This document shows positions 15-60,326 of a stretch of DNA of 64,000 nt, one piece after another. Each line of letters begins with the position of its first letter. Within the stretch, counting starts at the first letter, position 1. A model generated the notes under the pieces. The model worked only from the letters and a program-made list of their open reading frames with translations. It was not told the origin of the DNA and did no database searches. The stretch spans positions 163,384-227,383 of the IMG/VR virus record IMGVR_UViG_3300028888_000051; one strand, given 5' to 3'. The position numbers were made by a program, and so were the translations under genes. The stretch comes from a virus (Duplodnaviria > Heunggongvirae > Uroviricota > Caudoviricetes).

Positions 15-2039
15 ATGAGTCGTGAACAAGAAAAAGATGCACGTAGAATGAATGATATTAAATTAGTTAAAAATATTTTTGGTGATGGACCTAATATGGT
101 ATATAATGATTTACATTCTTATATGGGTCAATTTGCTAATAATGAAAAAGCATATAAAGATGCTATTGAACAATTAAAACAAAATAAAGCTGAAAAAAAT
201 AAGGAAAATACAGATAAAGAACAAACAAAAACAGAAGCTTTTGATGATAATCAATTAGATAATGATGAAGTATGGTATTTAGAATATCAAACTAATATTC
301 CGGGAGAAACTTCTTATCTAAATAAAGCTTGGAGAGAAGCTGATTTACTTTCTGATAATTTAGATCAAGCTGCTAAATTTATTTCTCGTGATAATGCAAT
401 GACTGAATTACAAGAATTATATGCATCTAAACAAACTTCTTTTCCATTTAAACCGATAATTGGAGGAGCTTTTGAAGAATGTGGAGCATGTGCTACAACA
501 AATGCGAGTTTAGGTTCAGCTGTACAATATGTTAGTAATAAGAAAAAAGAAGAAAGTTTCGATGAAGAAAAATTAACTGAAGATCAAAGACTTGATGTAA
601 AAGATCGCTCAAAATTAAACAAAGAACTAATTAAAATAGCTAATATTAAAGATTTTGCTGGTAACGTTATTGGCAAAGCAGGTAAAACATTCCAAGAATA
701 TGCTGATAATAATGAATTAGGCTTTAATTATGATGAAAACGGTAATATAATATTTAACCAAAATGATAAAACATTAAGAGTTGCGGATGAATTGGCTAAT
801 CGTAGAATAGCTTTAGATTATGTTACTAATCAACCAATAGGTATGATTGACACTATTGGTAAAGTAAGAGATTTACATGGTAAACAAATTGGCTATTCAG
901 ATACTCGTGAAGCTGCAAAAAATCGTGGTATAGATTTAGATAAGCTTGACATAATATCTACTCATGATGATAATTGGCAATATACACAAAAAGCAGGTTC
1001 ACATTGGCGTAATGATGCAAATGCTATAAAATTTATGGATAAAGAAGGTAACATTAGAGATAAATATGCAGATGCTTGGCAAACTATAGCGAAAGATAAT
1101 AAAAAATTAAGAGATAATCCAGAATTATTACAAACAATGTTTGGTGGTTATTTCGAAAAAGGACAAATCTTAGATCCAAAATCATTTAAACAGCGTGTAT
1201 TAGAAATAAATGATACTTTTGGATTAGAATTAAATCCTGATGAACCAATGATTCCAAGTCAAATGAAAGCAGGTGGAAAACAACAGCAGGAATTTTATAA
1301 ATGGCGTGATAATTACTATAAACCTTTATTTAATGCTTCTCGTAGAAAAAATAAAGCTGCTGATAAAATTAATGCTGATAGAGAAAATTTTAGTAAAGAA
1401 CAAGATGAGTGGAGAGCTTCAGCTAATGATCGTGCTGAACAAGAACAAAGTATTCAGTATTTTATAAATGATATGCAAGATGCTAATAAACAATTTATGG
1501 ATGGTAAAATAAGTGGAAAAGATTTAAAAAATAAATTTATGTCCATTGCCTCAAATGATGCTATTCCAACATATATTAAAAGTAAATTAGCTAAAGATAC
1601 TTATAATGCATTCGCTTCTTATGATGAAGATATGGCTGATATGTGGAAAGAATTGAATAATCAATATTTTACTCAACAAGAATCTGTATTAACTGAAGAT
1701 GATTCTCCTGCTGATTTTGCAGATGGTCCTATATCATCAAATATGACTGGAACTATATCAACTACAGATCAAACAATAGATCAAACAGATACAATTTCAG
1801 ATGGAATAGATGATTATGGATTAGAAGAACCTAATATGAGTGGAGGAGCCAGTTTCGGTGATATAAATATTAATGCTGGGCCAGGAGAAAATGATGAAGC
1901 TCCTATTCAATCTACTGAAAACAAAAGAATTATAGATGTATTAGTAAATGAAAATGATCCATCTCAAATTAAATTAAAAATAAAAGATATGGATACAAAT
2001 AAAATTGAATTAAAAGATTTATCTGAAATTGATGTTTAA
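15..2039 (+). CDS. hypothetical protein (674 aa), D/N/K-rich
   Basis: long ATG ORF; no family motif recognised by eye. Confidence 0.5.
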   Translation: MSREQEKDARRMNDIKLVKNIFGDGPNMVYNDLHSYMGQFANNEKAYKDAIEQLKQNKAEKNKENTDKEQTKTEAFDDNQLDNDEVWYLEYQTNIPGETSYLNKAWREADLLSDNLDQAAKFISRDNAMTELQELYASKQTSFPFKPIIGGAFEECGACATTNASLGSAVQYVSNKKKEESFDEEKLTEDQRLDVKDRSKLNKELIKIANIKDFAGNVIGKAGKTFQEYADNNELGFNYDENGNIIFNQNDKTLRVADELANRRIALDYVTNQPIGMIDTIGKVRDLHGKQIGYSDTREAAKNRGIDLDKLDIISTHDDNWQYTQKAGSHWRNDANAIKFMDKEGNIRDKYADAWQTIAKDNKKLRDNPELLQTMFGGYFEKGQILDPKSFKQRVLEINDTFGLELNPDEPMIPSQMKAGGKQQQEFYKWRDNYYKPLFNASRRKNKAADKINADRENFSKEQDEWRASANDRAEQEQSIQYFINDMQDANKQFMDGKISGKDLKNKFMSIASNDAIPTYIKSKLAKDTYNAFASYDEDMADMWKELNNQYFTQQESVLTEDDSPADFADGPISSNMTGTISTTDQTIDQTDTISDGIDDYGLEEPNMSGGASFGDININAGPGENDEAPIQSTENKRIIDVLVNENDPSQIKLKIKDMDTNKIELKDLSEIDV

Positions 2040-5195: not shown

Positions 5196-7061
5196 ATGAA
5201 ATTTAATATACGCCGGATAGAAATTGAAAATTTTAGAAGTATACAATCTAAGGTTACAATTAATATTAAACCTGGTCTATATTCTATTGAAGGTATAAAT
5301 AATGATGAAAAAACCAGTACGAATGGAGCGGGAAAATCTTCATTAATTTCAGCTTTATATTGGTGTTTAACTGGCAATGCTTTAACAAATGAAGCATTAG
5401 CCGATGATGTCATAAACGCTAAGGTTGGTAAGAATTGTAAAGTAAGTGTTTTTATTGAATCATTACAAGGTGATATAAAAATCACTAGGACAAGAGGAGA
5501 TTCTGAATTTGGTAATAATTTATTTCTTGAAATAGCAGATCAAGATTTAACTTGTCATAAAGTTGCGGATACTCAAACAAGAATTAATCAATTGTTTAAG
5601 ATTCCGTTTGATTTATTACATAGTACTATCATGATGACTCACGACATTAAGTCTGCTTTTTCTGAACTTACTCCACAACAACGTGTACAAACTTTAGAAA
5701 GTATACGTGATTATTCTATTTGGGATAAAGTTAGAGATGAAGCAAATAAAGATATCAAAATATATAACAAAGAAATACAGGAGCTTAATTTGAAATTAAG
5801 TAACATGAATGGTAGTAAGCAAACATATGAAAAAATGATTGCTGCTGCGGGAGAAAACTATAAAGTAGTTGTTAAATCTTTTGATAAAATCGAAATTGAT
5901 AATAAAATTAATAGTCTAATAGAAGAAAATAAAAACTATGCTATTGAAATAGCAAATTTAGAATCTGATATTAAGGAATTTAATAATTTTATTGAAAAAA
6001 ATACAGATAATTCTTTACAAAAAAGACTTAATGAGATTACTGATACTGCTAGCAATATTAAACTTTCACTTCAGAGTGCGGAATACGAACGGAAAGAGAA
6101 AGTAAAGGATATTGATATTATCAATGCTTGGTTTAAAAATGATAAATGTCCTACCTGCGGTCATTTATTGGATAGAACAGAAGAAGAAAAAGCTGTAAAA
6201 TCTAGCCATCGTGATGAATTAAATAAACAGCTCAATCTAATTGATGAAAAAGTAAAAAAATTAAATAATGATATTGCTTTAAAGCGAGAAGAGTGGGCAC
6301 AAGTAAATACTCAATTGAAGGTTAGTGAAAAAACTTTAACAGATTTTAGAGCTAAATTGAGTGAAAGTAATAATAAGATAAATATTCTTAAGAGTAAAGA
6401 GCTTGCAAATACGCGAGAGTTAGCTAAGCTTGAGTTAGAAAAAAATACTCACTCTTCTCAAGTAGATAAGTTAGACAAAGATATTATCTCTTATAAAAAA
6501 GAAATAGAGTCAATCTCAGCTGGCGAAGCTATCATCAATGAACAACTTAAGTTACTTGAAAATAAAAAAGAGTTATCTGATTACTTTTTTAAGTTACTTG
6601 GTAGTAAAGGTGAGTTAAGGCCTTATCTTTTAAAACAAGATATTTGTTATTTAAATAACTGTATGCAAACATATATACATCAATTTTTTGAAAATACTGA
6701 AGTTGAATTACGTTTAGAAGGTCCAAATATAGAGATTTTAATAAATAGTAATGGTATTAAGAAAAAAGTAACAAGCTTATCGGGTGGTGAAAAAAAGCGC
6801 CTTAATATTGCTATTCAACTTGGTCTATATGATTTAATACAAGCTACTTCACAAGTATGTTTTAATGTACTTTGGTTAGATGAAATTGAATCAGAATTAG
6901 ATCAAGCAGGTGTAAATCAATTAATTAATATAATTGAAGATAAATCTAATGATGCTGAAACTGTATTTTGGATTACAAATCATCCAAACGTTAAGGAAAG
7001 TATTACAAATAAAATTATATGTACTAAATCTTTAGGTGTAACAACTATTGAGGAGAGATAA
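5196..7061 (+). CDS. recombination endonuclease ATPase subunit, SbcC/Rad50-like (T4 gp46-like)
   Basis: N-terminal Walker A GAGKSS, central coiled-coil with CPTCG zinc hook-like motif, C-terminal LSGGEKKR signature and LWLDEIE Walker B. Confidence 0.8.
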   Translation: MKFNIRRIEIENFRSIQSKVTINIKPGLYSIEGINNDEKTSTNGAGKSSLISALYWCLTGNALTNEALADDVINAKVGKNCKVSVFIESLQGDIKITRTRGDSEFGNNLFLEIADQDLTCHKVADTQTRINQLFKIPFDLLHSTIMMTHDIKSAFSELTPQQRVQTLESIRDYSIWDKVRDEANKDIKIYNKEIQELNLKLSNMNGSKQTYEKMIAAAGENYKVVVKSFDKIEIDNKINSLIEENKNYAIEIANLESDIKEFNNFIEKNTDNSLQKRLNEITDTASNIKLSLQSAEYERKEKVKDIDIINAWFKNDKCPTCGHLLDRTEEEKAVKSSHRDELNKQLNLIDEKVKKLNNDIALKREEWAQVNTQLKVSEKTLTDFRAKLSESNNKINILKSKELANTRELAKLELEKNTHSSQVDKLDKDIISYKKEIESISAGEAIINEQLKLLENKKELSDYFFKLLGSKGELRPYLLKQDICYLNNCMQTYIHQFFENTEVELRLEGPNIEILINSNGIKKKVTSLSGGEKKRLNIAIQLGLYDLIQATSQVCFNVLWLDEIESELDQAGVNQLINIIEDKSNDAETVFWITNHPNVKESITNKIICTKSLGVTTIEER

Positions 7062-7064
7062 TTA

Positions 7065-8099
7065 ATGAAAATAATGGTTTTTGGAGATATACATTTTCAT
7101 AATTCACATCGTTTTTCAAATATTGAACCTCAAGGATATACAACTAGAGAAATTGAACAATATAATTGTGCAAATACATTAATTAAAATAGCCAAAGAAG
7201 AAAATATTGATAAAGTTGTATTTTTAGGTGATGCTTGGCAAGCTGTTGGAGATACAATTTCTGCTGAAACGCAATCAATTATGATTGAATTTTTTGCTCA
7301 ATTGAGAAGATATTTACCAAATTTAGCAGTAATTCTTGGTAATCATGATTTAATTAATAATGATCCAACTATAAATAAACTTAATTTTCTTAAATATATG
7401 CCTCCAATTGAATTTTTTTCAAAACCTGAGGTAAAAAATGAGTTTGTTTATATGCCTTATTGTTTAAATGACGATGAAGCTATTCGTTTTTTAGAAAATA
7501 TTTCAGAAAAACAAAATAAAATAGTTTTTTCACATTTAGAATTAGGAGGAATAAATTTGGGTAATGGTATTTTTACTCAAAAAGGCGTTCCATTAGATTT
7601 ACTTAAACAATTTAAAATGACTTTACAAGGACACTATCATTCAGGTGGAAGTTATGGTCATAAAATTCAAATAGCTGGTTCTACACAAAGGCTTTCTTTT
7701 AAAGATAAAGGTATTTCACGTAATAATATTATTATTTATAATACTGATACTGATAAAATTATTAGAAAAAGTTTTGAAAGTCCAGATTGGTTAGTATTTG
7801 ATGATGATAACATAGAGAATATTCTTAAAATAGACAATAATAATTACGTTAAGGTTGATTTAACCAGTGATATTTTATTAACATCTGAAATAAAAACTAA
7901 ATTAGAACAAGTAAAAAATAAAACAGTACATATAGATTTAACACGTATATCTATAAATAAACAAATTACAGAAGAAATATCAGAAAAAGAAGATAATTTA
8001 GATGTAATAAGAAAATTTATTATTAAATCTAATAATACAGATGATAAAAAAGAACAATTAATACAAGAAGGAGTAAGATTATTAAATAAAATTAGTTAA
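7065..8099 (+). CDS. recombination endonuclease nuclease subunit, SbcD/Mre11-like (T4 gp47-like)
   Basis: calcineurin-like phosphoesterase motifs GDIHFH, LGDAWQ, GNHDL, GHYH; directly follows gp46-like gene. Confidence 0.8.
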   Translation: MKIMVFGDIHFHNSHRFSNIEPQGYTTREIEQYNCANTLIKIAKEENIDKVVFLGDAWQAVGDTISAETQSIMIEFFAQLRRYLPNLAVILGNHDLINNDPTINKLNFLKYMPPIEFFSKPEVKNEFVYMPYCLNDDEAIRFLENISEKQNKIVFSHLELGGINLGNGIFTQKGVPLDLLKQFKMTLQGHYHSGGSYGHKIQIAGSTQRLSFKDKGISRNNIIIYNTDTDKIIRKSFESPDWLVFDDDNIENILKIDNNNYVKVDLTSDILLTSEIKTKLEQVKNKTVHIDLTRISINKQITEEISEKEDNLDVIRKFIIKSNNTDDKKEQLIQEGVRLLNKIS

Positions 8100-15626: not shown

Positions 15627-18611
15627 ATGTCAGAAAAACAATTACTTATCGAATCTTCTGATTTTAATCTTACTTGTAATTTATCAGAAAAAGACAGAGA
15701 AAATTTAACTGAATCTTTAAAAATTTCTGCAGGTAAACATGGTAATTTGATTGTCAAAAATATTCCATGTACAATACTTGATAGACGTAATCAAAATGGA
15801 CGTATATATCCTACAGCTTTAATGCAAAAAGCAATTAATGAAGCTATGCCAAAAATGAAAGCTAAAATGTTAGTGTGTTCTGCTTCTGAGCATCCTTCTG
15901 GAAGTTTTTGTGAACCAGCTAATATTTCACACGCTGTTATTAATGCATATATAAAAAATGTTGAAATTGAAGTTGAAGGTAAAAAAGAAAGACATAATGT
16001 ACTTTTTAATGATTGGGAAGTATTAAATGAAAAAAGTCAAGTTGCAGCTCATGTTCAGCAATTAATTTTATCTGGATTTGGTATAGGTACATCTATTCGT
16101 TCACTAGGTTCTTGTGATCCAGATGGTACAGTAACAGAATTAGAATATTTAGGAACTGATATTGTAGGACAACCTTCATCTTCTACTTATGTTAATATGC
16201 CAATTAATGAATCAGTAGAAGTAACAACAATTCCTTTAACAGAAACTTATGTTGTATCAGCTTCTGCTACAAATGTTGTAAGAGATTTAGATTCTGCATT
16301 AGCATTATCTCAACAAATTGATTCTGCTAATTTTGGTACTGTAAAAAAGACTTCTACAAAACTTGATTCTGAGGTTGATCCTAAAACGGGTGCAGAAACA
16401 ACAATGGTTACATTAGAAACTGAAACAGAAGATGAAGTATCAGAATTAGATCAAGCATTAATGATGGCTAAACAAGCCATGTTAAATGGAAAAGCTGATA
16501 TTGATTCTGTTACAATAGAAAATATTAAAGAAGAACAACCAAAAGAATCTGTTGAAAACAAAGATGATGAAAAAGCATTAAATGAAGAGAATAAAATAAC
16601 AGAAAATCATTTTGCTCCTTTACCTCATATTACTTCAATTACAAATCATATTTTATTGAATTATCCAAAAGAAAGCGAAGCTTATAAAGTAGCTTTACAT
16701 ATTCAAAATGATTTAATTACTAATAGATTAAAAGATAGACAAGCAGCTTTAGAAGAATTAAAAAAATATGTAGATATAACTAAAGACGAATATGTACCTG
16801 AATCTGTTATGAATGAAGTAGGTGTTGATAAGTTAATGGATGAAATTCGTAACATTATGTATAATGAAGGTTTGTCTCTTGAACAGGCTTGTCGTAAATA
16901 TTGTGAACATCATGAAAATATTCCATATGAATATGTATTGGAATATATGAGAACAAATCCAGTTACTGAATCAATTACAGAAGCTAAAGAAGAAAAGCAA
17001 GAAGATCCAAATGAAGGTAAGCAATATGTTTTGAAAACTTCTCAGGGTTTTGTTGCTATGGATGGTAATGCTATTTCATTTGTAGATAATCCTAAAGAAG
17101 CTATTCATTTTATTAAGGGTAAAGAAGAATCAGGAGTTGTTCATTTATCTGGAATTAATAAAATTCTTGAAACAATGGGTATATATGATGTACAAAAATA
17201 TTTTAAAAAAGGTACAACAGATATTTCCGCACCAAATGATATAAATATACAAAATGCCAAAAATGCAGGCATCGAAGTTAAAGAGTGTGGTAATATAGAT
17301 ATGCCAATGACTGAAGATAATGGCTCAAATACACGTTTTAAAGCTACTGTAAAAATTACTGATGAAAATGGAGAGTCTTCTGAAGATATTCCTGTTTCAG
17401 CAATTGATATGGAAGGTATTAATGCTGAAATTTCTAATCTTTATGATATGAAAAAACAAAAAGGTAATCCAGTTATCACTGTTACAGATACTACTTCTGG
17501 TCAACAATTTACATATAATCCAGAGTCTCGTCAAATTGAATTAATGAATATACAAACTGAAGCGAGTGGTGATTTAGAGCAAGATGGAAATAAACTTTCT
17601 ATGGAAATTGATGATAACAATAAAGTAGAAAAAGAATTTAATTCACCGGTACAAGCCGCAGTTGCAAAAGCAGGTATTGAAGCAGGCAAACTTGGTGGTG
17701 ATGTTCTTTTGAGTGAAGATGATGAAGATTCAGATACAGCTAAATGTGCATGGTGTGGTGAAGAATTTGAAAAATCTGCATTACGTAAAGAGAAAGATTT
17801 AGGTTATCTTTGTAACACTTGTGCAAAAGGAATTCAATCAAGAGAAGGTTCATTAACATTTGAAGAAGATTTAGCAAATGATCCACATATTTATAATCAA
17901 GGAAAAGATGAAATAGATAATGGTCAAGAACCTAATATGAATAAAATTGCGGATTCTATTCGCTATATTGCTAAAAAAACTGATTGCTCACTAAAAGATG
18001 CAATGGATATCTATGAAAAGATTACAGGTTTTAAATTTGATGAAAAAGATTCTATTTCAGAAGAAGTTCATAGACCAAATTATGAAGATATAGAACCAGG
18101 ATGGTATGCAGGAGCTCAAAATATTGGTGTTACTGGACCTTATGAATCAAAAGAAACATTGCTTGCAGATTTAGGTGAAGTAGCAGATAAAATTGATATT
18201 GAATATATTTCACCAGAAGATTTAGGGCTTGCTGCTGAATCATCTAAAATAGATGAAGTATTATATAATAAACCTAGTAAGGCTTCTGATCCATTAATTA
18301 AAACACCATTAGAAGAAGATGATGATGAATCTCCAGCGGTAAATATTTTATTTAAAAATATTGATTGGAATACTAAAGACTTTATGAATTCTATGATGGC
18401 TAATATGGAAAATGATGATCCTGTTAATATAGAAGATATAAAGTCAAAAGTAAAAGATTTACCAGATGAAGCAACTATTACTGTTAAAGTTAATGAAATA
18501 CCTTTATCTGATGATAGTTTACTTGAAAAATTTTTATTTGATAAACTTGGTAAAAAGTATGCCATGAAAGTAAATAATGCAGAAATGGCAAATATAAGTT
18601 GGGCAGTATAA
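15627..18611 (+). CDS. large acidic hypothetical protein (994 aa) with internal Cys4 zinc-ribbon (CAWCG...CNTC)
   Basis: long ATG ORF; AGTTCTATAAAATAAATA motif 41 nt upstream. Confidence 0.55.
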   Translation: MSEKQLLIESSDFNLTCNLSEKDRENLTESLKISAGKHGNLIVKNIPCTILDRRNQNGRIYPTALMQKAINEAMPKMKAKMLVCSASEHPSGSFCEPANISHAVINAYIKNVEIEVEGKKERHNVLFNDWEVLNEKSQVAAHVQQLILSGFGIGTSIRSLGSCDPDGTVTELEYLGTDIVGQPSSSTYVNMPINESVEVTTIPLTETYVVSASATNVVRDLDSALALSQQIDSANFGTVKKTSTKLDSEVDPKTGAETTMVTLETETEDEVSELDQALMMAKQAMLNGKADIDSVTIENIKEEQPKESVENKDDEKALNEENKITENHFAPLPHITSITNHILLNYPKESEAYKVALHIQNDLITNRLKDRQAALEELKKYVDITKDEYVPESVMNEVGVDKLMDEIRNIMYNEGLSLEQACRKYCEHHENIPYEYVLEYMRTNPVTESITEAKEEKQEDPNEGKQYVLKTSQGFVAMDGNAISFVDNPKEAIHFIKGKEESGVVHLSGINKILETMGIYDVQKYFKKGTTDISAPNDINIQNAKNAGIEVKECGNIDMPMTEDNGSNTRFKATVKITDENGESSEDIPVSAIDMEGINAEISNLYDMKKQKGNPVITVTDTTSGQQFTYNPESRQIELMNIQTEASGDLEQDGNKLSMEIDDNNKVEKEFNSPVQAAVAKAGIEAGKLGGDVLLSEDDEDSDTAKCAWCGEEFEKSALRKEKDLGYLCNTCAKGIQSREGSLTFEEDLANDPHIYNQGKDEIDNGQEPNMNKIADSIRYIAKKTDCSLKDAMDIYEKITGFKFDEKDSISEEVHRPNYEDIEPGWYAGAQNIGVTGPYESKETLLADLGEVADKIDIEYISPEDLGLAAESSKIDEVLYNKPSKASDPLIKTPLEEDDDESPAVNILFKNIDWNTKDFMNSMMANMENDDPVNIEDIKSKVKDLPDEATITVKVNEIPLSDDSLLEKFLFDKLGKKYAMKVNNAEMANISWAV

Positions 18612-41027: not shown

Positions 41028-42377
41028 TTAAGCTATAATATTATCTGGTCCATTATTAATTGATAAATCATATTTTTGTTTATAAAAAGGACCTACTTTA
41101 TTTAGCATTTTTTTAACCGTAGAGTGAATACTTTCATTTTCTAAATCAATTATGCCTTCAGGAACCTCTTGCTTACCACGAAGTAAAATACGAGCAATAA
41201 GTTGACCTAATTCAAAGCACATAGATTCATCAAAACCCCGAGTTGTAATCGCTGGAGTACCAATTCTAATTGCAGAAGATTCAGATGGTTTAGTATCACC
41301 CGGCATCATGTTTTTATTACAAATAATATGATATGATGTTAATAAGTCTTCAGCCTGTTTACCATTTATACCAGAATTTCTAAGGTCTACTAATACCATA
41401 TGATTTTCTGAGCCATTACTAATGAATCCTATTTTATTTTCTTTATCGAAATCTCTTATACCATTGATAAGTGCTTGCATATTACAATATACTTGTTCTA
41501 TATAATCTTTAAATTCTGGTTTGAGAGCTTCAATAAAACATTGTGCTTTAGCAGCAACAAGTGCTTCATTTGGACCACCTTGAATTTTTGGAAAACACCC
41601 ACTGTTAATTTTACTACAAAGTTTTTGGTCATTCCAAAGAATTATACCACCACGAGGTCCTCTTAAAGTTTTGTGTGTTGTAGAAGTGATCACATCACAC
41701 CATTTAGTTGGATCATATTTATCTTTCCATAAATGAGCAGCAATAAATCCCATTACATGAGCTGAATCAGACATAAGATAACATTTTGTTTCTTCATCCC
41801 TACCAAGATTATATACATCTACCAATTTCCTTATATATTCATAATTAATTCGTTTAGAATAAGCTGAAGCTCCAACAACTAACATTCTTGGATGATATTG
41901 AAGTAATTTTTGTTTAATTTCTTCATAATTCAATTCACCATTTTCATCAAGACCATAATATACAGGATTATATATATGACCTGTTAATGAAGCTTTAGAG
42001 TAGTGTGTCAAATGTCCGCCATATTCTATGCCCATTCCAAGTACTGTATCACCTGGTTTTAAAAGACCTGCATATACAGCTTGATTAGCCTGAGAGCCAG
42101 AATGAGGTTGAACACAAGCAAAATTTACATTAAATAATTCTTTAGCTTTTTCTATAGCATAATTTTCTACTTCATTTATTACTTCACATCCAGCATAATG
42201 ACGTCCCTGTTTAGAAACTTCATTTGGAAATCCTTCTGCATACTTTACAGATAAATGACTTCCCAAAAGATCAAGAATATCTTGACTTGGATAGTTTTCT
42301 GAAGCTATTAATTCAATACCATCATTAAGACGATTTGTCTCTTTGCTTTCTAATTGTTGTAATTTTTGATCAATCAT
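41028..42377 (-). CDS. glyA: serine hydroxymethyltransferase
   Basis: PLP-lysine motif TSTTHKTLRGPRGG, GSQANQAVY, overall SHMT length and motif order. Confidence 0.9.
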   Translation of the reverse strand: MIDQKLQQLESKETNRLNDGIELIASENYPSQDILDLLGSHLSVKYAEGFPNEVSKQGRHYAGCEVINEVENYAIEKAKELFNVNFACVQPHSGSQANQAVYAGLLKPGDTVLGMGIEYGGHLTHYSKASLTGHIYNPVYYGLDENGELNYEEIKQKLLQYHPRMLVVGASAYSKRINYEYIRKLVDVYNLGRDEETKCYLMSDSAHVMGFIAAHLWKDKYDPTKWCDVITSTTHKTLRGPRGGIILWNDQKLCSKINSGCFPKIQGGPNEALVAAKAQCFIEALKPEFKDYIEQVYCNMQALINGIRDFDKENKIGFISNGSENHMVLVDLRNSGINGKQAEDLLTSYHIICNKNMMPGDTKPSESSAIRIGTPAITTRGFDESMCFELGQLIARILLRGKQEVPEGIIDLENESIHSTVKKMLNKVGPFYKQKYDLSINNGPDNIIA

Positions 42378-50991: not shown

Positions 50992-51210
50992 ATGTATGAA
51001 AAATTAATAGATCTTAAAGATAATTTTTTATTTTGTATTGCAACTACATTTGTTGGAATTTTAATTATGATAATAGCTAGTGTTATTATAATTATAACAC
51101 TTCCAATGTATTATTTATTTTGGATAAATCCAGTATTTGAAATTTATCAAAATTTAATTTGGAAAATATATGATATATTATTTCAAATTGGATCAGATGA
51201 TGAAATTTAA
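50992..51210 (+). CDS. small membrane protein (72 aa)
   Basis: TM segments. Confidence 0.4.
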   Translation: MYEKLIDLKDNFLFCIATTFVGILIMIIASVIIIITLPMYYLFWINPVFEIYQNLIWKIYDILFQIGSDDEI

Positions 51211-54200
51211 ATTAAGTCTTGCAATTCTTCAGAAGATTGATCTATAAAATTTGAATAATCATTTACTTTTTCTTTTATTTGATTAGAAGAAATATATTCA
51301 TATTGCGGAAAATCTGAATAATTAAGCTGTGCATTATATATAAAACCAACAATTACATCAGCTAAATCTTTTAATTCAGTAGTTCGAGTTACTTTTCCTC
51401 TATCAAAAACAAGAGCCGATAATTCTTTTCTGAGTTTTGGACATATTCCTACTTTTACCTGTCCTAATTCCATTAAAGTAGATGCATTAACATAAGGTTC
51501 AAGTTTTATATCGACTGAAACTTTATTTACTACTTCGAAACATCCCGATTTAGCTAAATTTTGTTGAAAAATTTCTCCATTCCATTGATCGCTTGATACT
51601 GTATGAATTAGCATATTACGTTCAATTACTAAATTTATTAAAAAAGTTTCTATTGCATGTATATCTATTTTATTTCTTGCATTCACAGCTATAAGTAAAT
51701 CAACTACATATATTGTTTCATTTTCTTTTTTATTTTCATTATAACGCCATTCTTTATGACCAATACATATACCAGCATCACATTGTCCAGAATCACCACC
51801 TCCTGCTAAATCTACATGACAATAACGTTTTGCAAAAGGAGCTCTTTTAAATATCCATCTACCATCTGTTAATTGTTCCCATAAATTATATTCATCTAGT
51901 AAAGCTAATATATCATTATTATCACTTATATCAGCTTTAATATTAAATTCTGGAGGCAATTCAGCATCTTCAATTTTTGATATATCTTTAAAGACTGTAC
52001 TGTTATCTACAGTTGTCATTCCTGCAATATCTTGAATAGACTGATCTAATTGTAATTCAAATTTTTCTTTATATACAGTTGGAACATTTATTACTTCACA
52101 TCCAATGGGTGGTATATAATTTCCATCTTCTAAAGCTTTCAATTCACCAGGATCGGTAAATATTTTAGAAGGAATTGAGCCATTACCAACAAGAACAGGA
52201 AATGTAGAGCCATCACCTAAAAACTCAGGATCTTCTTTAACTTCCCAAAGCCGAGGCATAAGAATAAGAATAGATGGATCATTTTTTGGCAATCGACGTA
52301 TGTATTCACCAATAGGACTATTTGTTGTACGAGCTGATGATACAACTGACTGAAATACTAAAGGACTTCCTTGAAAACGTGAACTAAAACGATTATCAAC
52401 TGAATTAAGAAGTGCCAAAGCTTCATCTACACCTTTTTCATTGATCTCATCCATAAAGCTATTTACTATATTCAAACCTATAGTATGAGTTATACCTGAA
52501 CCAGATGTAATAATAATATTGTCTGGAAAATATATCGTGCCTGTCGATTTTTCCACATTAAATGGTATTGGACAATGTGGATCCGATAAATCAAAATTTT
52601 CAAAAGATTGCATTCGCATAACTCTTTGAAAACACGGCATTGTTTCCATAAGTTTAACAAATGGTAATAAATTTGTTTCATAAACTTGTTTTAAAGTCAT
52701 AGAAATAATAACATTTGCTATTGTTGCATCACTATCTATATTAAATACTGCTCTAGGATAACGTAAACATAATATACGATATAAAACATATAAAAAAGCT
52801 TTACGAGCAATTGTTGACTTACCACAATTATGTGCAATTATACCAGCCTTTAAAGCAAAATTATGATTTTTTTCTGTAGTTATATCATAAACTTGTTGTT
52901 TACCTATATATTCTATAGAAATTATTTTATGATTGTATATTTTTTTACGCTTGTAATTTTCTTTAGCCCCTAAAGTAGGATCATACCAAGGCTCTCTTGT
53001 ATGAATAAATGCTAATAATTCAATGTATTTTTGATTTTCTTTTCCATGGAATCTTGCAATAGTAGCTAATACTTGTTTAGCCAATATAATTGCTTTTTCT
53101 TCAGGACTTTTGTTGGCTTTTAAATTACGCATATTTTCAGCCATTTTTTTAGAAATATTTCTAGCCTTTTCTGTTTTATTTCTTTCTATTAAAGTTTTAC
53201 TTGCTCTTTGTCTATATTCTTCACTATGTGGACCATTCCAACCGGCAAGCGAAGCTTTTCTTTGGTGTTCTGAATCTTGATGTAGTTTATTCCATCCAAT
53301 TTTTCTTTTTGCTTCTATCTCTTCATAATCTAAGCGAGCTTTATAGGTAATATGACTTTTTATTCCTTTTTGTCTTCTGTATTCTTTAAATTCATCACCT
53401 CTAATTGAAGCATTATATTCTTTCCATCTTCTACCTCCAACTTTAGCGTGATATTCCCAATGATATTTGTGAGGTATAATAGCTAAATTTTGAGGTCTAT
53501 CATCTAATTTATTAAAATTTTTATGGTGAACAACTTGTCCAGTTTTATATAAAGTTTTCCATTTACCTACTATTTGATATCTTTTTTCCCATTTTTCAGT
53601 AGTATTATTTTTTATTTGAATATATCCTTTATCACTAATTTTTGAATAATAAGGCATCATAGATTCACCAGATTTTAATCCAGTATCTATACTTTTCCAT
53701 TTATTTTTTCTTGTTAAAAATCTATGATCTGATGTACATTTAATTATTTCACCATTGTCTAAAGTTATTTTATACACATCTTTTATACCACTACAAAATA
53801 CATTAATTATCTTATCTGGTTCCCAAGTTTTATTAAATGTATTAAATGATAATACCCATTCATTATTATAATTATTAAGTAATTCATAAATTGTTTTATT
53901 ACCATTTAAAGTAGCTACTATCGTATCACCGGTTAAGCAACCAATACTTCCACCAAATATAGTTTTTCTTACTGGTGAGCCTTCCCTAAACATATATTCA
54001 AGTTGTTGTCGCCAATAAGGATATAATGTAGCATTACTATTATACATATAAAATTTACCAGATAAAAATTCTTCAATATTAGGCATAGGTCGTCTATATA
54101 AAAGATTATCAATTTGATCTGTTAAATCAGAATCCTGATTTGTTAATGTCAAATATAAAGCAATACGTTTTTGTATTTCTTGTTGCTTTTTAAATTCATC

Positions 54201-54344
54201 TGGCATATAATGCTCTTCATAATATGCTAAAATGTCTATAAAATCTTGTGACATAATAACATTTTGAAGTTCATTTGCATTATTAAATGAAACTATTGGA
54301 AGATTTTCTAATTTTTTTGCAATATCAGTAGGAAGTTGTTCCAT
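51207..54344 (-). CDS. terminase large subunit (T4 gp17-like) interrupted by an intein in the Walker A P-loop; extein about 674 aa
   Basis: extein junction restores GGSIG|CGKST Walker A; C-terminal nuclease motifs CHVDLAGGGDSGQCDAG; intein blocks CLTGDTIV ... VYDITTEKNHNFALKAGIIAHN|C. Confidence 0.85.
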   Translation of the reverse strand: MEQLPTDIAKKLENLPIVSFNNANELQNVIMSQDFIDILAYYEEHYMPDEFKKQQEIQKRIALYLTLTNQDSDLTDQIDNLLYRRPMPNIEEFLSGKFYMYNSNATLYPYWRQQLEYMFREGSPVRKTIFGGSIGCLTGDTIVATLNGNKTIYELLNNYNNEWVLSFNTFNKTWEPDKIINVFCSGIKDVYKITLDNGEIIKCTSDHRFLTRKNKWKSIDTGLKSGESMMPYYSKISDKGYIQIKNNTTEKWEKRYQIVGKWKTLYKTGQVVHHKNFNKLDDRPQNLAIIPHKYHWEYHAKVGGRRWKEYNASIRGDEFKEYRRQKGIKSHITYKARLDYEEIEAKRKIGWNKLHQDSEHQRKASLAGWNGPHSEEYRQRASKTLIERNKTEKARNISKKMAENMRNLKANKSPEEKAIILAKQVLATIARFHGKENQKYIELLAFIHTREPWYDPTLGAKENYKRKKIYNHKIISIEYIGKQQVYDITTEKNHNFALKAGIIAHNCGKSTIARKAFLYVLYRILCLRYPRAVFNIDSDATIANVIISMTLKQVYETNLLPFVKLMETMPCFQRVMRMQSFENFDLSDPHCPIPFNVEKSTGTIYFPDNIIITSGSGITHTIGLNIVNSFMDEINEKGVDEALALLNSVDNRFSSRFQGSPLVFQSVVSSARTTNSPIGEYIRRLPKNDPSILILMPRLWEVKEDPEFLGDGSTFPVLVGNGSIPSKIFTDPGELKALEDGNYIPPIGCEVINVPTVYKEKFELQLDQSIQDIAGMTTVDNSTVFKDISKIEDAELPPEFNIKADISDNNDILALLDEYNLWEQLTDGRWIFKRAPFAKRYCHVDLAGGGDSGQCDAGICIGHKEWRYNENKKENETIYVVDLLIAVNARNKIDIHAIETFLINLVIERNMLIHTVSSDQWNGEIFQQNLAKSGCFEVVNKVSVDIKLEPYVNASTLMELGQVKVGICPKLRKELSALVFDRGKVTRTTELKDLADVIVGFIYNAQLNYSDFPQYEYISSNQIKEKVNDYSNFIDQSSEELQDLI
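52827..53939 (-). mobile_element. intein (371 aa) with HNH homing endonuclease domain, inserted in TerL P-loop
   Basis: N-terminal Cys codon TGC at 53937-53939, block B TSDHRFLT, HNH VVHHKNFNKLDDRPQNLAIIPHKYHWEYH, terminal HN followed by +1 Cys (TGT 52824-52826); boundaries verified by codon counting. Confidence 0.85.
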
Positions 54345-54376
54345 TAATGTAATTATCCCTCTAAACTTTTTTAGAT

Positions 54377-54427
54377 ATTATATAGAACATAATCAAAAGT
54401 AAATATATAAAGTTCTATTTAAAATAG
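54377..54427. promoter_or_regulatory. divergent promoter-like region between terminase (minus) and tail-tube (plus) genes with GTTCTA motif on each strand
   Basis: TATAGAAC (54381-54388, minus-strand GTTCTATA) and AGTTCTATTTAAAATAG (54411-54427). Confidence 0.5.
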
Positions 54428-55217: not shown

Positions 55218-57167
55218 ATGAAAAATATTTGTAAAAATTGCGGCAAAGAATATGAATTTGAACCAAAGCATGGAACCTATAAATTTAAGTATTGTTCTCA
55301 AGAATGTAAACATGCCTTTGCGAAAAAAGATGAAGAACCACAATATAGGATTTGTGAATATTGTGGTAAAGAATATTGGTGGAGTAATTCGTTTAAAAAT
55401 TATAAAGAATATGTACATATAGATACAAAACGTTTTTGTTCTGCTGAGTGTAGTAAAAATTATAAAAAAGAAAAAATTAAACAAACATGTTTAAAAAAAT
55501 ATGGTGTTGAATATATTTCACAAACTGCAGATGTTAAAGAAAAAATGAAAAATGCATGGAAAAATAAATCAGAAAAAGAATTAAAATTGCGTCAAGAAAG
55601 TAGAAAGCAAACTAATTTAAAAAAATATGGTGTTGAACATGTATCTAAATTATCTGAAATTAAAGAAAAAGTAAAGCAAACAAATTTAAAAAAATTTGGT
55701 GCTGAATTTTATACACAAACAGATGAATATAAAGAAAAATATAAACAAACCAATCTTAAAAAGTATGGTGTAGAGCATTGTTCACAAGTACCAAAAATAG
55801 CAGAAAAAATAAAAAATAGTCTATTAAATAAATCTAAAGAAGAATGGGTTAAAATTATAGATAAGAGAAAGCATACTAATTTAGAGAAGTATGGTACAGA
55901 AAGTGCTTCTCAGAATAATGATATAAAACAAAAAGTAAAACAAACTAATTTAAAAAAATTTGGAAACGAAATAGCAATTCAATCAGATATTATACAATCT
56001 AAAATTAAACAAAATAATCTTGAAAAATATGGTGTAAAATATAGTATAGCATCTAATGAAGTACAAGAAAAAATTCGTACTACAAATTTGAAAAGATATA
56101 ATTATGAATATCCATTTCAATCTGAAGAATTAAGAAAAATTATGGAAGAAAATAGAAAAAAGACGAATCTTAAAAAATATGGTACAGAAAACATTAGTCA
56201 AGTTAAAGAATTTAAAGAAAAAGCAAAAAATACATGTTTGAAGAAATATGGTGTACCATATAATTGTATGACTGAAAATTGTTTAGAAGTAGGACATAGT
56301 ACTATATCTAAAATAAATTTGGCTTTTAAAAATAAATTAGATAAATTAAATATTCAAAATAAACTAGAATTTCATATTGATAAATGGAGTTATGATTTTT
56401 TATGTAATGATAAGTTTTTAATTGAAATTAATCCTAGCTATACACATAATTCATCTAATACTAAAAAACGATTGGAATTTATGAAGCCAAAAGATAAATA
56501 CTATCATTTTAACAAAACTAAATTAGCTTATGAAAATGGTTATCAGTGTATTCATATATGGGATTGGGATGATAAAGAAAAAATTTTAAATATACTTGTT
56601 GATAAAAAGAAAATATATGCTAGAAAATTAATATTAAAAAATGTATCAAATGAAGAATGTAATGAGTTTTTAAATTCATATCATTTACAAAATACATGTA
56701 AAGGACAAACTATTAGATTAGGTTTATATAAAGATAATGAATTGATACAATTAATGACATTTGGAAAAGCGAGATATACAAAAAATTATGAATATGAATT
56801 ATTAAGATTATGTACAAAAGCAGAATATAAAGTTATCGGAGGAGCAGAAAAATTATTTAAACATTTTTTAATTATATATAATCCAAAATCTATAATTTCT
56901 TATTGTGATAATTCAAAATTTTCAGGAGAAGTATACAAAAGATTAAATATGAATTTGAAAGATTATGGAACACCAAGAAAGCATTGGTATCATATAGAAA
57001 AAAATAAACATATTACAGAAGCACTTTTACTTCAAAGAGGTTATTCACAATTACACGGTGATAAAGAACATATAAAAGGTGAAAATAATGAAAAACTGAT
57101 GTTAGAAGCAGGATATGTAGAAATATATGATTCTGGTCAAAGTACATATGTTTGGCATAAAAACTAA
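55218..57167 (+). CDS. homing-endonuclease-like protein: N-terminal Cys4 zinc ribbons, about 10 tandem NUMOD3-like 23-aa repeats, C-terminal Vsr/DUF559-like nuclease domain
   Basis: CKNCG...CSQEC and CEYCG...CSAEC; repeats TNLKKYGVEHVSKLSEIKEKVKQ; C-terminal YDFLCNDKFLIEINPSYTHN ... NGYQCIHIWDWDD matches vDF...IE.DG..H...Gw.vlRf pattern. Confidence 0.55.
   Translation: MKNICKNCGKEYEFEPKHGTYKFKYCSQECKHAFAKKDEEPQYRICEYCGKEYWWSNSFKNYKEYVHIDTKRFCSAECSKNYKKEKIKQTCLKKYGVEYISQTADVKEKMKNAWKNKSEKELKLRQESRKQTNLKKYGVEHVSKLSEIKEKVKQTNLKKFGAEFYTQTDEYKEKYKQTNLKKYGVEHCSQVPKIAEKIKNSLLNKSKEEWVKIIDKRKHTNLEKYGTESASQNNDIKQKVKQTNLKKFGNEIAIQSDIIQSKIKQNNLEKYGVKYSIASNEVQEKIRTTNLKRYNYEYPFQSEELRKIMEENRKKTNLKKYGTENISQVKEFKEKAKNTCLKKYGVPYNCMTENCLEVGHSTISKINLAFKNKLDKLNIQNKLEFHIDKWSYDFLCNDKFLIEINPSYTHNSSNTKKRLEFMKPKDKYYHFNKTKLAYENGYQCIHIWDWDDKEKILNILVDKKKIYARKLILKNVSNEECNEFLNSYHLQNTCKGQTIRLGLYKDNELIQLMTFGKARYTKNYEYELLRLCTKAEYKVIGGAEKLFKHFLIIYNPKSIISYCDNSKFSGEVYKRLNMNLKDYGTPRKHWYHIEKNKHITEALLLQRGYSQLHGDKEHIKGENNEKLMLEAGYVEIYDSGQSTYVWHKN
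55482..56274 (+). repeat. in-frame tandem coding repeats (about 69-bp units, about 10 copies, some with insertions)
   Basis: protein-level repeats TNLKKYGVE..SQ..EIKEKVKQ read from translation. Confidence 0.7.
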
Positions 57168-59231: not shown

Positions 59232-60326
59232 ATGGCTAAAAAAATAGAAAAAAAAGTTCAAAAGGAAAATTCTCGTGTAACTTCAGCATTATCATTACTT
59301 CGTAAAAAATTTGGTGATGATGCAGCAATGACTTTTAATGACATAGGTGTTACAAAAGTAGATGTAATTCCTTCTGGTTCTTTAAAATTAGACAAGATAT
59401 TAGGAATTGGTGGATGGCCACGTGGCAGAGTTACGCTTTTATGGGGTGATTATAGTTCTGGTAAATCAACGATATGTTTACAAGCCGTAGCTAATGCACA
59501 AAAAGAAAATTTAGTTTGTGCTTATGTTGATATGGAACATGCTTTAGATCCTATTTATGCTGAAGCACTAGGTTGTGATATGTCTGAATTAATTTTACTT
59601 CAACCAGATGGTGGTGAACAAGCACTAGAAGCTATTAAATTATTAGCACAAGAAAAAGCAGCTGATTTAATTATTCTTGATTCAATTGTTGCATGTGTAC
59701 CAGCAAGTGAATTAGATGGTGAATTATCTGATATGAATATTGGACGTCAAGCAAAGTTATTTAGTTCATTTTTTAAACAAGTTACTCCAGCACTTGAAAT
59801 AGCAAATTGTGCTTTAATTTGTACAAATCAAGTTCGCCAAGCTCCAGGTAAATATGGAGATGCATCTGTTTTACCTTGTGGAGAAGCTCAAAAATTCTTT
59901 GCTTCTATTATTTGCCGTACTCGTAGACAACAATCTCAAAAAGAAGAAAGTAAAGAAGGTGATATTATTGCAAATCAAATTAGTGTAACTACAGAAAAGA
60001 ATAAATTGGCCCCTCCATTCAGAAAAGCAGAATTAATGATTTATTATGGTAAAGGTTTTTCAGCAGATAATGAAATGTTAGATTTAGCTGTAGAATTTGG
60101 TATATTAACAAAAGCTGGAGCATTTTATAAATATAAAGGAGAAACTATTGGACAAGGATCTGCTAAAACTAAAATTTGGTTAGAAGAACATAAAGATATT
60201 AAAAATAATATAATGGAACAAGTTAAAGAAATTCTTATGAAGCCTAATAATGAAAAAATGATTTTAGAAAAAGAAGCAGAGTCAGAGTTAAATTATGATC
60301 CGGATACAGGTGAAATAATAGAATAA
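59232..60326 (+). CDS. recA: RecA-family recombinase (bacterial RecA-like; functional analogue of T4 UvsX)
   Basis: Walker A GDYSSGKST, LLQPDGGEQALE, ILDSIVA Walker B, CTNQVRQAPG loop-2-like region. Confidence 0.85.
   Translation: MAKKIEKKVQKENSRVTSALSLLRKKFGDDAAMTFNDIGVTKVDVIPSGSLKLDKILGIGGWPRGRVTLLWGDYSSGKSTICLQAVANAQKENLVCAYVDMEHALDPIYAEALGCDMSELILLQPDGGEQALEAIKLLAQEKAADLIILDSIVACVPASELDGELSDMNIGRQAKLFSSFFKQVTPALEIANCALICTNQVRQAPGKYGDASVLPCGEAQKFFASIICRTRRQQSQKEESKEGDIIANQISVTTEKNKLAPPFRKAELMIYYGKGFSADNEMLDLAVEFGILTKAGAFYKYKGETIGQGSAKTKIWLEEHKDIKNNIMEQVKEILMKPNNEKMILEKEAESELNYDPDTGEIIE

Follow-up and report, generated by a model that had tools for sequence, protein, structure and literature searches.

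The large terminase gene (terL) in the 64-kb stretch of a 227-kb phage genome analysed here (the window) carries, with a probability that we put at about 0.88, a true class-1 intein that holds an I-HmuI-like HNH homing endonuclease in frame, interrupts the Walker A motif of TerL (GGSIG^CGKST, with ^ marking the insertion point), would be spliced out of the precursor and would spread by homing. The original prediction had described a 1045-aa TerL ORF with a 371-aa intein, and both are present. The features that bear on this reading are:

51207..54344, minus strand: TerL precursor ORF including the intein, 1045 aa (ORF listing)
53940..54344, minus strand: N-extein, aa 1-135, ending in ...KTIFGGSIG, the first half of Walker A (aligns with intein-less orthologues)
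52827..53939, minus strand: intein, 371 aa, 1113 nt, precursor aa 136-506
53625..53939, minus strand: N-terminal splicing lobe, intein aa 1-105 (phmmer match to the Ssp and Npu DnaB inteins over aa 2-86)
53939-53937, minus strand: block A Cys1, TGC (read from the sequence; invariant in 12 homologues)
53735-53724, minus strand: block B, T69-x-x-H72 (T69 and H72 invariant in the alignment)
53430..53624, minus strand: HNH nuclease domain, intein aa 106-170, motif H138 H139 ... N151 ... H160 ... H164
52935..53429, minus strand: basic all-helical endonuclease region, intein aa 171-335 (secondary structure of the model, composition, dN/dS)
52827..52934, minus strand: C-terminal splicing lobe, intein aa 336-371 (phmmer match of aa 334-371 to the Npu DnaE intein, E=2.4e-10)
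52829-52827, minus strand: terminal Asn371 of the intein, AAT (read from the sequence)
52826-52824, minus strand: +1 Cys, TGT (read from the sequence)
51207..52826, minus strand: C-extein, beginning with the +1 Cys (52826-52824) and then GKST, the second half of Walker A (alignment with intein-less orthologues)

Without the segment, the protein is 674 aa long and its Walker A motif is GGSIG-CGKST, which fits GxxxxGK[ST]. With this spliced form we obtained no match in a local copy of Pfam-A and nothing useful from the PDB by sequence, either with phmmer or with a 33-sequence profile, and for this reason the fold was predicted; the phrog_2 match reached only E=0.005, and the precomputed label on TerL homologues is PF27249 'MJ0330_N'. 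The top Foldseek match of the model is the HK97 TerL (6z6d, E=8e-10, full-length alignment), and PhiV-1 terminase, T4 gp17 (full-length) and the G20c nuclease are further top matches. The model of the C-terminal nuclease matches the terminase nucleases of G20c, P74-26, HSV and HCMV with TMt of up to 0.70, the value obtained against G20c; pLDDT is 85-92 in the nuclease domain and 37-75, which is low confidence, in the ATPase part. The spliced protein contains both the Walker A (GSIGCGKS) and the Walker B motif of an ASCE ATPase, the latter (..SFMDE..) lying in the C-extein together with an RNase-H-like nuclease domain. D261-E262 of Walker B (hhhhDE) are invariant in the 33-44 members of the family alignment, as are the C-extein acidic residues D474, D548, D622 and D625, and distant tblastn homologues are annotated as terminase large subunit. 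By its predicted fold and its conserved Walker A, Walker B and nuclease acidic residues, the host protein is a large terminase, as the original prediction had it. An ORF of exactly 674 aa at 15..2039 was considered as a second, uninterrupted TerL and rejected as unrelated (best BLASTP E=1.4); the analysis covered the 64-kb window, and such a copy may sit elsewhere in the 227-kb genome.

The closest relatives, 11 cluster representatives from metagenomes that are 92-93% identical to TerL, are exactly 674 aa long and read GGSIGVGKST, and the segment is therefore an insertion and not a conserved domain; what these relatives have is a contiguous TerL of 674 aa without the segment, not one of 1045 aa. 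Intein-less 674-aa orthologues read GGSIGVGKST or GGSIGCGKST, and two isolated phages have GGAIGIGKST and TGSIGSGKST at Walker A. The excised product GGSIGCGKST aligns column for column with the intein-less orthologues, which bears out the proposed position within Walker A; orthologues without the in-frame segment, and a host motif made whole by its removal, are what one expects of an intein. At the DNA level the empty site reads ..TTTGGTGGAAGTATTGGT^GTTGGTAAATCTACA.., and in the P0010 or P0016 allele ..TTTGGTGGAAGTATTGGT^GTT or TGC GGTAAATCTACA...

The splicing residues are complete. All of the predicted intein peptides (CLTGDTIV, TSDHRFLT and VYDITTEKNHNFALKAGIIAHN^C) were found, and the boundary codons (TGC at 53937-53939; AAT-TGT at 52824-52829) are correct to the base. 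The Pfam Intein_splicing match is far beyond chance (E=1.6e-23; score 83.6 bits, cut-off 35.8), the N- and C-terminal lobes together make up a HINT fold, and structure prediction groups the insert with mini-inteins and I-HmuI. Each of the class-1 positions (position-1 nucleophile, block B, blocks F and G, and the +1 residue) is occupied as in that class: C1, D5, T6, T69 and H72 are invariant in the homologue alignment, with block B reading T69-S-D-H72 in the context KCTSDHRF. In the C-terminal lobe, block F is VYDITTEKNHNF (D352) and block G ends in ...IIAHN (H370, N371), giving VYD352ITTEKNHNF ... IIAH370N371 ^ C+1, in which V350, Y351, D352, H370 and N371 are nearly invariant. Among solved splicing domains, the closest are Npu and Ssp DnaB, Npu DnaE, gp41-1 and NrdJ-1; Cys1, TxxH, the terminal (H/S)N and the +1 Cys/Ser are common to class-1 mini-inteins and the window's intein, but these solved examples, whether natural or engineered, are mini or split inteins that lack an endonuclease, whereas the window's intein is contiguous and holds a 230-aa endonuclease insert. 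A split intein in a fractured gene, an arrangement reportedly described by Dassa and colleagues in 2009 with the host gene and intein in two ORFs and often a free-standing endonuclease gene between them, was rejected because terL in the window is one continuous ORF. Class 3 inteins have a triad of Trp in block B, Cys in block F and Thr in block G. They are described in PMC2807308 as using an obligate block F nucleophile, usually with no position-1 nucleophile, and this class was also rejected, given that Cys1 is present while Trp is missing from block B (TSDH) and Cys from block F (VYDITTEKNHNF). A BIL or Hint-only domain was ruled out on residues and architecture.

The nuclease domain has the beta-beta-alpha-metal motif (His ... 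Asn ... His/Asn) of the HNH_3, I-HmuI-like type, and the peptide VVHHKNFNKLDDRPQNLAIIPHKYHWEYH, given earlier for an embedded HNH endonuclease, is likewise found: the intein does carry an in-frame I-HmuI-like nuclease. I-HmuI nicks one strand and has the H-N-N variant of the motif. It is free-standing in a group I intron (PDB 1u3e, Bacillus phage SPO1), whereas the HNH domain of the window lies in frame within the intein; in the alignment the HNH core is DHK in I-HmuI and HHK in the intein, whose motif is H-N-H, with H164 as an additional His, and whose helical tail differs and is longer. This helical region (24% K+R, pI about 10, dN/dS 0.029 against the P0017 copy) is presumed to be a DNA-binding module.

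With an intein at hand, the reading that competes best with the one we prefer is that the element splices but no longer homes, as a fixed, immobile passenger on its way to a mini-intein; we regard this as unlikely. In its favour, the HNH_3 score of 22.1 bits is just under the Pfam cut-off of 24.8 for this protein, and endonuclease loss is common: among 120 family representatives, 12 have an intein at the window's site, five of them full-length, one partly deleted and six mini-inteins (these counts rest on cluster representatives, with 157 further hits left out). The window's own species-level lineage also yielded no intein-less allele, and at the DNA level the nearest empty one is about 85% identical. 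The 0 matches of an exact-pattern scan for the empty site TTTGGTGGAAGTATTGGTNNNGGTAARTCNACAAT in JGI metagenome contigs and IMG/VR do not bear on this, as both collections appear to be without this clade. Against immobility, dN/dS relative to the P0017 copy is 0.026-0.029 over the HNH and helical regions (0.029 for aa 106-335), and homologues as distant as 25% identity all retain H138, H139, N151, H160 and H164. By this measure the endonuclease is under purifying selection since its divergence from the P0017 copy, and the intein looks active.

A further argument against an immobile element comes from the comparison with P0017, whose intein occupies the same insertion site. The inteins are 96.0% identical in amino acids and 93.2% in nucleotides, whereas the exteins are only 72.5% and about 73% identical, respectively, and dS is 0.36 for the intein versus 0.90-1.21 for the exteins. 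An intein that is nearly identical in so different a TerL background requires recent transfer, and the pattern points to recent lateral transfer of an endonuclease still under selection. Within the P0016/17/18 lineage, in which exteins are 99% identical, empty, full and endonuclease-deleted alleles coexist. Of 25 resolved informative sites in the 155 nt that follow the insertion on its 3' side, 12 show the P0017-like state in the window, compared with about 1 in 5 far downstream and about 40% in the upstream flank and a mid-gene stretch. This is only suggestive of a co-conversion tract adjoining the insertion, given the strong conservation of the region and that the donor may have been a phage other than P0017. 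Between them, the window and P0017 document a transfer of the intein between diverged phages that is clean and can be dated.

Taken over the family, the distribution of the intein at this site is sporadic, and alleles representing all stages of a homing cycle, as read from the sequences, are visible there: empty, full-length with HNH, partly deleted and mini-intein. Across the 120 cluster representatives, the terL genes of the clade show at least six insertion sites. The nuclease domain accounts for three of these, and the P-loop has three staggered points, at -3, +1 and +4 relative to the first Walker A Gly.

In the homing-intein model, insertion between Gly135 and residue 136 of mature TerL would generate the 1045-aa precursor with its ATP-binding loop physically interrupted. 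Splicing would begin with an N-S acyl shift at Cys1, followed by trans-thioesterification to the +1 Cys, His370-assisted cyclisation of Asn371 and an S-N shift, releasing a free 371-aa intein and a ligated 674-aa TerL with an intact P-loop. We infer autocatalytic splicing from the intact catalytic residues and by analogy with published TerL inteins that splice (PMC5050341). With the P-loop split in the precursor and intact only after splicing, packaging would depend on this reaction. The free intein, or the precursor, would then recognise intein-less terL through its HNH and basic helical regions during co-infection and nick or cut it, and repair from the intein-bearing copy would convert such alleles, which is homing; both the cleavage activity of the HNH domain and its target are predictions from sequence.

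A variant of this model, which we consider somewhat more doubtful still than an immobile passenger, holds that the intein is kept as a post-translational gate on packaging. Through Cys1 and the +1 Cys in the P-loop, splicing would become conditional; redox state, or the binding of DNA or procapsids through the basic HNH module, could for instance be the trigger, and if so the terminase ATPase would be active only at the right stage of infection. An essential regulatory role is opposed by the allelic intein copies, which carry +1 Cys or Ser and in many cases Ser, and by the closest relatives, which are without the intein.

It is very improbable that the segment is a non-splicing structural or regulatory domain (a HINT/HNH insertion that has been exapted), or that the phage is defective and the intein dead. 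Nothing specific favours this; orthologues that are 92-93% identical lack precisely this segment with Walker A restored, and no splicing residue is lost (Cys1, T-x-x-H, block F Asp, His-Asn and +1 Cys). In P-loop NTPases, nucleotide binding is incompatible with a 371-aa insert that separates the glycines from the lysine, so a retained insert would bar it, and the exact 1045-aa protein is present on three metagenomic contigs of more than 200 kb, the longest being the 227-kb contig k141_5434835 of ENA ERZ27257205. Least credible of all is an assembly chimera or frame artefact, for which only the metagenomic source speaks, since the frame of the TerL ORF is open for 3135 nt, G+C is uniform (26.7% in the intein, 26.4% in the window) and the same intein-in-terL architecture was assembled independently in many samples and lineages.

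Upstream of TerL there is a spacer of 182 bp and then a divergent tail-tube gene at 54527, with no same-strand gene directly upstream; the earlier remark that no small-terminase gene lies there is true but uninformative, the lone-gene layout being found in relatives too. Two features lie in this spacer:

54377..54387, minus strand: TTCTATATAAT, recurring promoter-like motif that starts 43 nt before the TerL ATG (recurrence in the window and relatives)
54357..54361, minus strand: GAGGG, Shine-Dalgarno-like, 12 nt before the TerL ATG (read from the sequence)

At 54381, where a promoter-like motif had been placed, the recurrent motif TTCTATATAAT is present, but a sigma-70-type promoter is not supported: there is a TATAAT hexamer at 54382-54377, a promoter scan of the spacer found no sigma-70-type -35/-10 pair, and promoter-like matches around terL showed no excess (25 versus 28.9 +/- 6.0 in shuffles). 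A scan for terminators around terL found none. The form TTCTAWATAW has 18 copies in the window, nine of them within the 10.5% of DNA outside ORFs, an enrichment inflated by AT-rich spacers. Six of these nine start 38-79 nt upstream of a same-strand start codon, and in relatives L004 and L005 the motif precedes terL by 43 and 54 nt, which suggests a promoter-like function.

Inteins in the TerL P-loop (TerL1-a and TerL1-b) are known from mycobacteriophages, where splicing has been shown (Kelley et al. 2016, mBio, PMC5050341), as has endonuclease cleavage of intein-less alleles for TerL1-b and -c (PMC5050341). TerL1-a and -b resemble the window's intein in their position in Walker A, in their sporadic distribution and in that splicing rebuilds the ATPase site. 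The terminase families differ, the TerL of the window having no Terminase_1/6 Pfam match and the precomputed label PF27249, as do the host phages, here with about 26% G+C and metagenome contigs of 160-285 kb. The insertion point in the window, G^xGK[ST], is two residues before the Lys, whereas that of TerL1-a is between Lys and Thr and that of TerL1-b is one residue away. The endonuclease in the window is HNH. In a 2025 survey (bioRxiv 10.1101/2025.01.02.630785), 712 of 784 actinobacteriophage inteins were of the LAGLIDADG type, and the terminase large subunit is one of the four host proteins given there for non-canonical endonuclease architectures. In-frame HNH inteins, for which that survey cites Dalgaard et al. 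1997, have been reported in phages and share the architecture seen here, with a HINT splicing domain and the HNH in frame between blocks B and F. The survey calls this architecture rare, but it is common in metagenomes: while a word-indexed search with the intein by itself found only 14 proteins, P0017 not among them, the exhaustive HMMER search used for the frequency count matched 144 clusters (50% identity) at E<=1e-30 and 1860 at E<=1e-10, many of which cover the N-lobe and HNH.

No close cultured relative was found by megablast of window positions 45-60 kb against 50,697 phage records. The sole isolated-phage match spanning the intein is SP15_022 of Bacillus phage SP-15 (KT624200, 'hypothetical protein'), whose HNH intein is homologous and lies in the P-loop region of TerL, with an insertion point six residues upstream of that in the window (..YFEV^CVTGGIGLGKST). 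In SP-15, terL is further broken up into three or more genes and has a split intein at Walker B, an arrangement that also occurs in relative L007, whereas terL of the window is continuous.

As TerL P-loop inteins and in-frame HNH inteins have both been published, the intein described here is a new example that leaves the current understanding of inteins unchanged. In practical terms, the 1045-aa ORF should be annotated as a TerL precursor with a mature product of 674 aa, inteins need to be masked before terL is used as a phylogenetic marker, and this TerL family escapes the standard terminase Pfam models. The site also provides a defined candidate recognition sequence for a new HNH enzyme, and the splicing domain, which is compact, uses Cys1/Cys+1 and has the fast Npu DnaE and gp41-1 type mini-inteins among its relatives, could be of modest interest for protein engineering. 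The value of the finding lies in its context more than in the single gene, in that it marks terL of a little-known clade of large AT-rich phages as an intein hot-spot.

The TerL gene of the window is a single open reading frame, and the limits of the intein within it were established by reverse-strand reading and translation.

51207..54344, minus strand: TerL precursor ORF, 1045 codons
52827..53939, minus strand: intein, 1113 nt, 371 aa, from residue 136 (CLTGDTIV) to residue 506 (...GIIAHN)
53939-53937, minus strand: Cys1 codon TGC
52829-52827, minus strand: terminal Asn codon AAT
52826-52824, minus strand: +1 Cys codon TGT

These positions match exactly those of the original prediction, which placed an HNH intein in the Walker A P-loop of TerL. 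Joining the flanks yields a 674-aa protein reading ...KTIFGGSIG-CGKSTIARK..., which fits the Walker A pattern GxxxxGK[ST], so the proposal that excision restores GGSIG-CGKST is borne out by translation of the joined exteins. The G+C content is even, at 26.7% in the intein, 29.0% in the exteins and 26.4% in the window.

A search with the spliced TerL returned 277 proteins, encoded on metagenomic contigs as long as 285 kb. Eleven cluster representatives are closest to it (92–93% identity), each exactly 674 aa long and reading GGSIGVGKST; somewhat more distant ones read GGSIGCGKST. A contiguous TerL retaining the segment in relatives would have spoken for a structural domain; the opposite was found, and since the segment is precisely absent from the 674-aa orthologues, it is an insertion. 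The exact window precursor protein was found on three contigs, the longest of 227 kb; the phage itself is uncultured, and its genome measures about 227 kb.

The spliced protein has no Pfam-A match, no match in the PDB by sequence or by profile, and only a marginal one among PHROG families, to phrog_2. Searching phage genomes by tblastn gave distant matches (24–32%), many annotated as terminase large subunit, and two intein-less ones align across the junction as GGAIGIGKST (Pseudomonas phage QdP_Psa3) and TGSIGSGKST (Xanthomonas phage phiXF1). The fold was modelled with 44 sequences on P0001, an intein-less orthologue 93% identical to the window protein (pLDDT 69.9, nuclease domain 85–92). In a Foldseek comparison of this model with the PDB, terminases alone stand at the top, HK97 TerL (6z6d) first with E=8e-10, followed by PhiV-1 terminase, T4 gp17 and the G20c and P74-26 nuclease domains. 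Walker A, the hhhhDE Walker B (D261-E262) and four acidic nuclease residues are invariant in the family alignment.

The segment matches Pfam Intein_splicing over residues 14–371, with a gap at the insert (E=1.6e-23, 83.6 bits, cut-off 35.8). In searches of PDB sequences the N-lobe (aa 2–86) resembles the Ssp and Npu DnaB inteins and the C-lobe (aa 334–371) matches the Npu DnaE intein (E=2.4e-10). In an alignment of the intein with eleven homologues, taken from terminases and from other proteins (25–96% identity), C1, D5, T6, T69 and H72 were invariant and V350, Y351, D352, H370 and N371 nearly so; these residues are assigned to blocks A, B, F and G of a class-1 intein. The class-3 type was ruled out by the presence of Cys1 and the lack of Trp in block B and of Cys in block F. 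An AlphaFold2 model from the same alignment has a mean pLDDT of 82.5.

The embedded nuclease is matched by Pfam HNH_3 at residues 134–160 (E=1.2e-4, 22.1 bits, just under the gathering score of 24.8) and by two PHROG HNH families (2e-6 and 1e-5). All 12 aligned homologues match HNH_3, the best at 7e-8, and H138, H139, N151, H160 and H164 are invariant among them. I-HmuI (1u3e), which nicks DNA, is the only significant PDB match of the nuclease-region profile (E=0.002). The model predicts strands at 135–139 and 152–156 and then a helix, the order seen in the beta-beta-alpha-metal motif. Residues 171–335, all-helical in the model and basic (24% K+R, pI about 10), form a putative DNA-binding module.

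Inteins are present in 23 of the 120 listed family representatives, at six positions, and 12 of the 23 occupy the window's site: five full-length (370–372 aa), one partly deleted (251 aa) and six mini-inteins (135–156 aa) that have lost the endonuclease. At this site the same intein is found in the metagenomic TerL P0017, with 96.0% protein and 93.2% DNA identity, whereas the exteins share 72.5% and about 73%, respectively. The intein shows a synonymous divergence of 0.36, the N-extein 0.90 and the C-extein 1.21, so the intein copies separated well after the host genes, which argues for lateral transfer. With dN/dS against the P0017 copy at 0.026 for the HNH core and 0.029 for the helical region, the endonuclease has been under purifying selection since that transfer. 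The P0017 lineage, whose exteins are 99% identical to one another, contains side by side an empty allele (P0016), a full-length one (P0017) and a mini-intein one (P0018, with 229 aa of the endonuclease deleted), as in the textbook homing cycle. Of the empty alleles, P0010 is nearest to the window and has Val (GTT) in place of the +1 Cys (TGT), and about 150 nt 3' of the insertion in the window are biased to P0017-like states, which is suggestive of co-conversion although not conclusive. No empty allele was found in the window's own species-level lineage, the nearest being at about 85% DNA identity; the JGI and IMG/VR collections appear to be without the clade.

The window carries a well-formed, probably active HNH intein in the TerL P-loop. 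The gene would be translated as a 1045-aa precursor with a split P-loop, from which class-1 splicing by Cys1, T69/H72, D352, H370/N371 and Cys+1 would release the intein and ligate the 674-aa TerL. In co-infection the HNH intein would target an intein-less terL, presumably by a nick or a double-strand break, and then be copied in by recombinational repair. The original observation is confirmed and its interpretation supported.

Upstream of terL lie a 182 bp spacer and a divergent tail-tube gene (phrog_45), a layout shared by relatives; a same-strand gene is absent before terL, in agreement with the statement that no small-terminase gene directly precedes it. A promoter-like motif had also been placed at 54381. 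A sigma-70 scan found no minus-strand promoter in the spacer and no overall excess of promoter-like sites, so a sigma-70 promoter is not supported; a recurrent motif does lie there.

54387..54377, minus strand: TTCTATATAAT, copy of TTCTAWATAW upstream of terL
12255, 29301, 30242, 54387, 57180, 59194: starts of TTCTAWATAW copies before genes

Nine of its 18 copies in the window are outside ORFs, where 10.5% of the window lies, and six of these start 38–79 nt upstream of same-strand start codons, including those of terL and recA. In the loci of two relatives, L004 and L005, it again precedes terL, at distances of 43 and 54 nt, including where the rest of the spacer aligns badly. The motif could plausibly be a phage-specific promoter element; since AT-rich spacers inflate the enrichment, this is treated as a lead only.

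Several further genes of the window were noted.

55218..57167, plus strand: free-standing gene for a homing endonuclease of 649 aa, two genes upstream of terL
41028..42377, minus strand: serine hydroxymethyltransferase (SHMT), auxiliary metabolic gene, Pfam SHMT E=1.5e-111
15..2039, plus strand: 674-aa ORF, no Pfam or PHROG match

The first matches Pfam DUF7487 (E=2.6e-55) and phrog_3339 'homing endonuclease' (E=2.5e-88) and has tandem ...KQTNLKKYGVEH.SQ... repeats. At the same spot L005 has a 113-aa ORF and L004 has neither, so the gene looks like a second, independent mobile element near terL. The 674-aa ORF is unrelated to spliced TerL (BLASTP E=1.4), the equal length being coincidental. 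Together with SHMT, the window also codes for SbcC/SbcD-like nuclease subunits (5196..8099, plus strand) and a bacterial-type RecA (59232..60326, plus strand); in a 994-aa protein (15627..18611, plus strand), a head-maturation protease match is confined to the N-terminal 250 aa.

Five further TerL sites hold inteins (P0021, P0053, P0050/51/55/58/61/63/83, P0048, P0081, P0091, the last with two): one after the GK of Walker A, where a LAGLIDADG-type intein begins with Ala, another at Walker B (F|C..N|CDEIN), and the nuclease domain has three (RY|C..N|CHIDLS, ADQYQ|C..N|S, ELKDx|C..N|CDAL), of HNH type and adjoining invariant acidic residues. Homologous HNH or mini inteins interrupt the P-loop at three staggered points in different TerL clades, ^CVTGGIGLGKST (Bacillus phage SP-15), TG^SIGxGK[ST] (P0125-P0127) and GGSIG^CGKST (window); P0130 was also compared. 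Relatives of the window intein lie in a caspase-like peptidase (P0129), a dUTPase (P0131), a dCTP-deaminase-like protein (P0134) and P0132, possibly radical-SAM-like as judged from its Cys-rich sequence alone. The staggered points and the other host proteins suggest repeated retargeting of related inteins.

In one relative's locus (L007 6001..10155, Logan SRR2329877_9175) terL is a 'fractured gene' in three ORFs: the first has a P-loop mini-intein and, at Walker B, a terminal N-split intein (..NSF|CLSGETEV..), the second encodes a DUF7487 endonuclease, and the third begins with a C-split intein (..IWTKN|CDEINEKG..) followed by the rest of TerL. P0122, P0123, P0125 and P0127 also terminate in an N-split intein at Walker B. 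In SP-15 (KT624200, L002 3923..9477, SP15_022 to SP15_026) the terminase seems to be split into three or more separately encoded pieces, an arrangement that the record does not annotate: SP15_022 has the N-extein together with an HNH intein and a short stretch of extein, SP15_023 is endonuclease-like and possibly intron-borne, SP15_024 has an extein piece and an N-split intein at Walker B, SP15_025 has no assigned function, and SP15_026, the only piece labelled putative terminase, has a C-split intein and the remainder of TerL. Split inteins in fractured terminase genes were reported earlier (Dassa et al. 2009).

TerL is the commonest intein host in mycobacteriophages, with sites in the ATPase domain only and the two most frequent in the Walker A P-loop; splicing was demonstrated, and two inteins, one of them at the P-loop, cleaved intein-less alleles (Kelley et al. 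2016, PMC5050341). Descriptions of in-frame HNH inteins go back to 1997 (Dalgaard et al. 1997, as cited in bioRxiv 10.1101/2025.01.02.630785), and that 2025 survey gives the terminase large subunit as one of four hosts of non-canonical endonuclease architectures in actinobacteriophage inteins. The window intein differs from the published TerL P-loop inteins in terminase family, phage group and insertion point (G^xGK[ST]), and its endonuclease is HNH whereas most surveyed actinobacteriophage inteins are LAGLIDADG. Its type is abundant: in an exhaustive HMMER search 4815 clusters (50% identity) matched at E<=1e-3, of which 1860 reached E<=1e-10 and 144 reached E<=1e-30. Many of the matches span the N-lobe and HNH in large multi-intein proteins. 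The window intein belongs to an ordinary type, and it illustrates clearly both the homing cycle and how inteins pass between phages.
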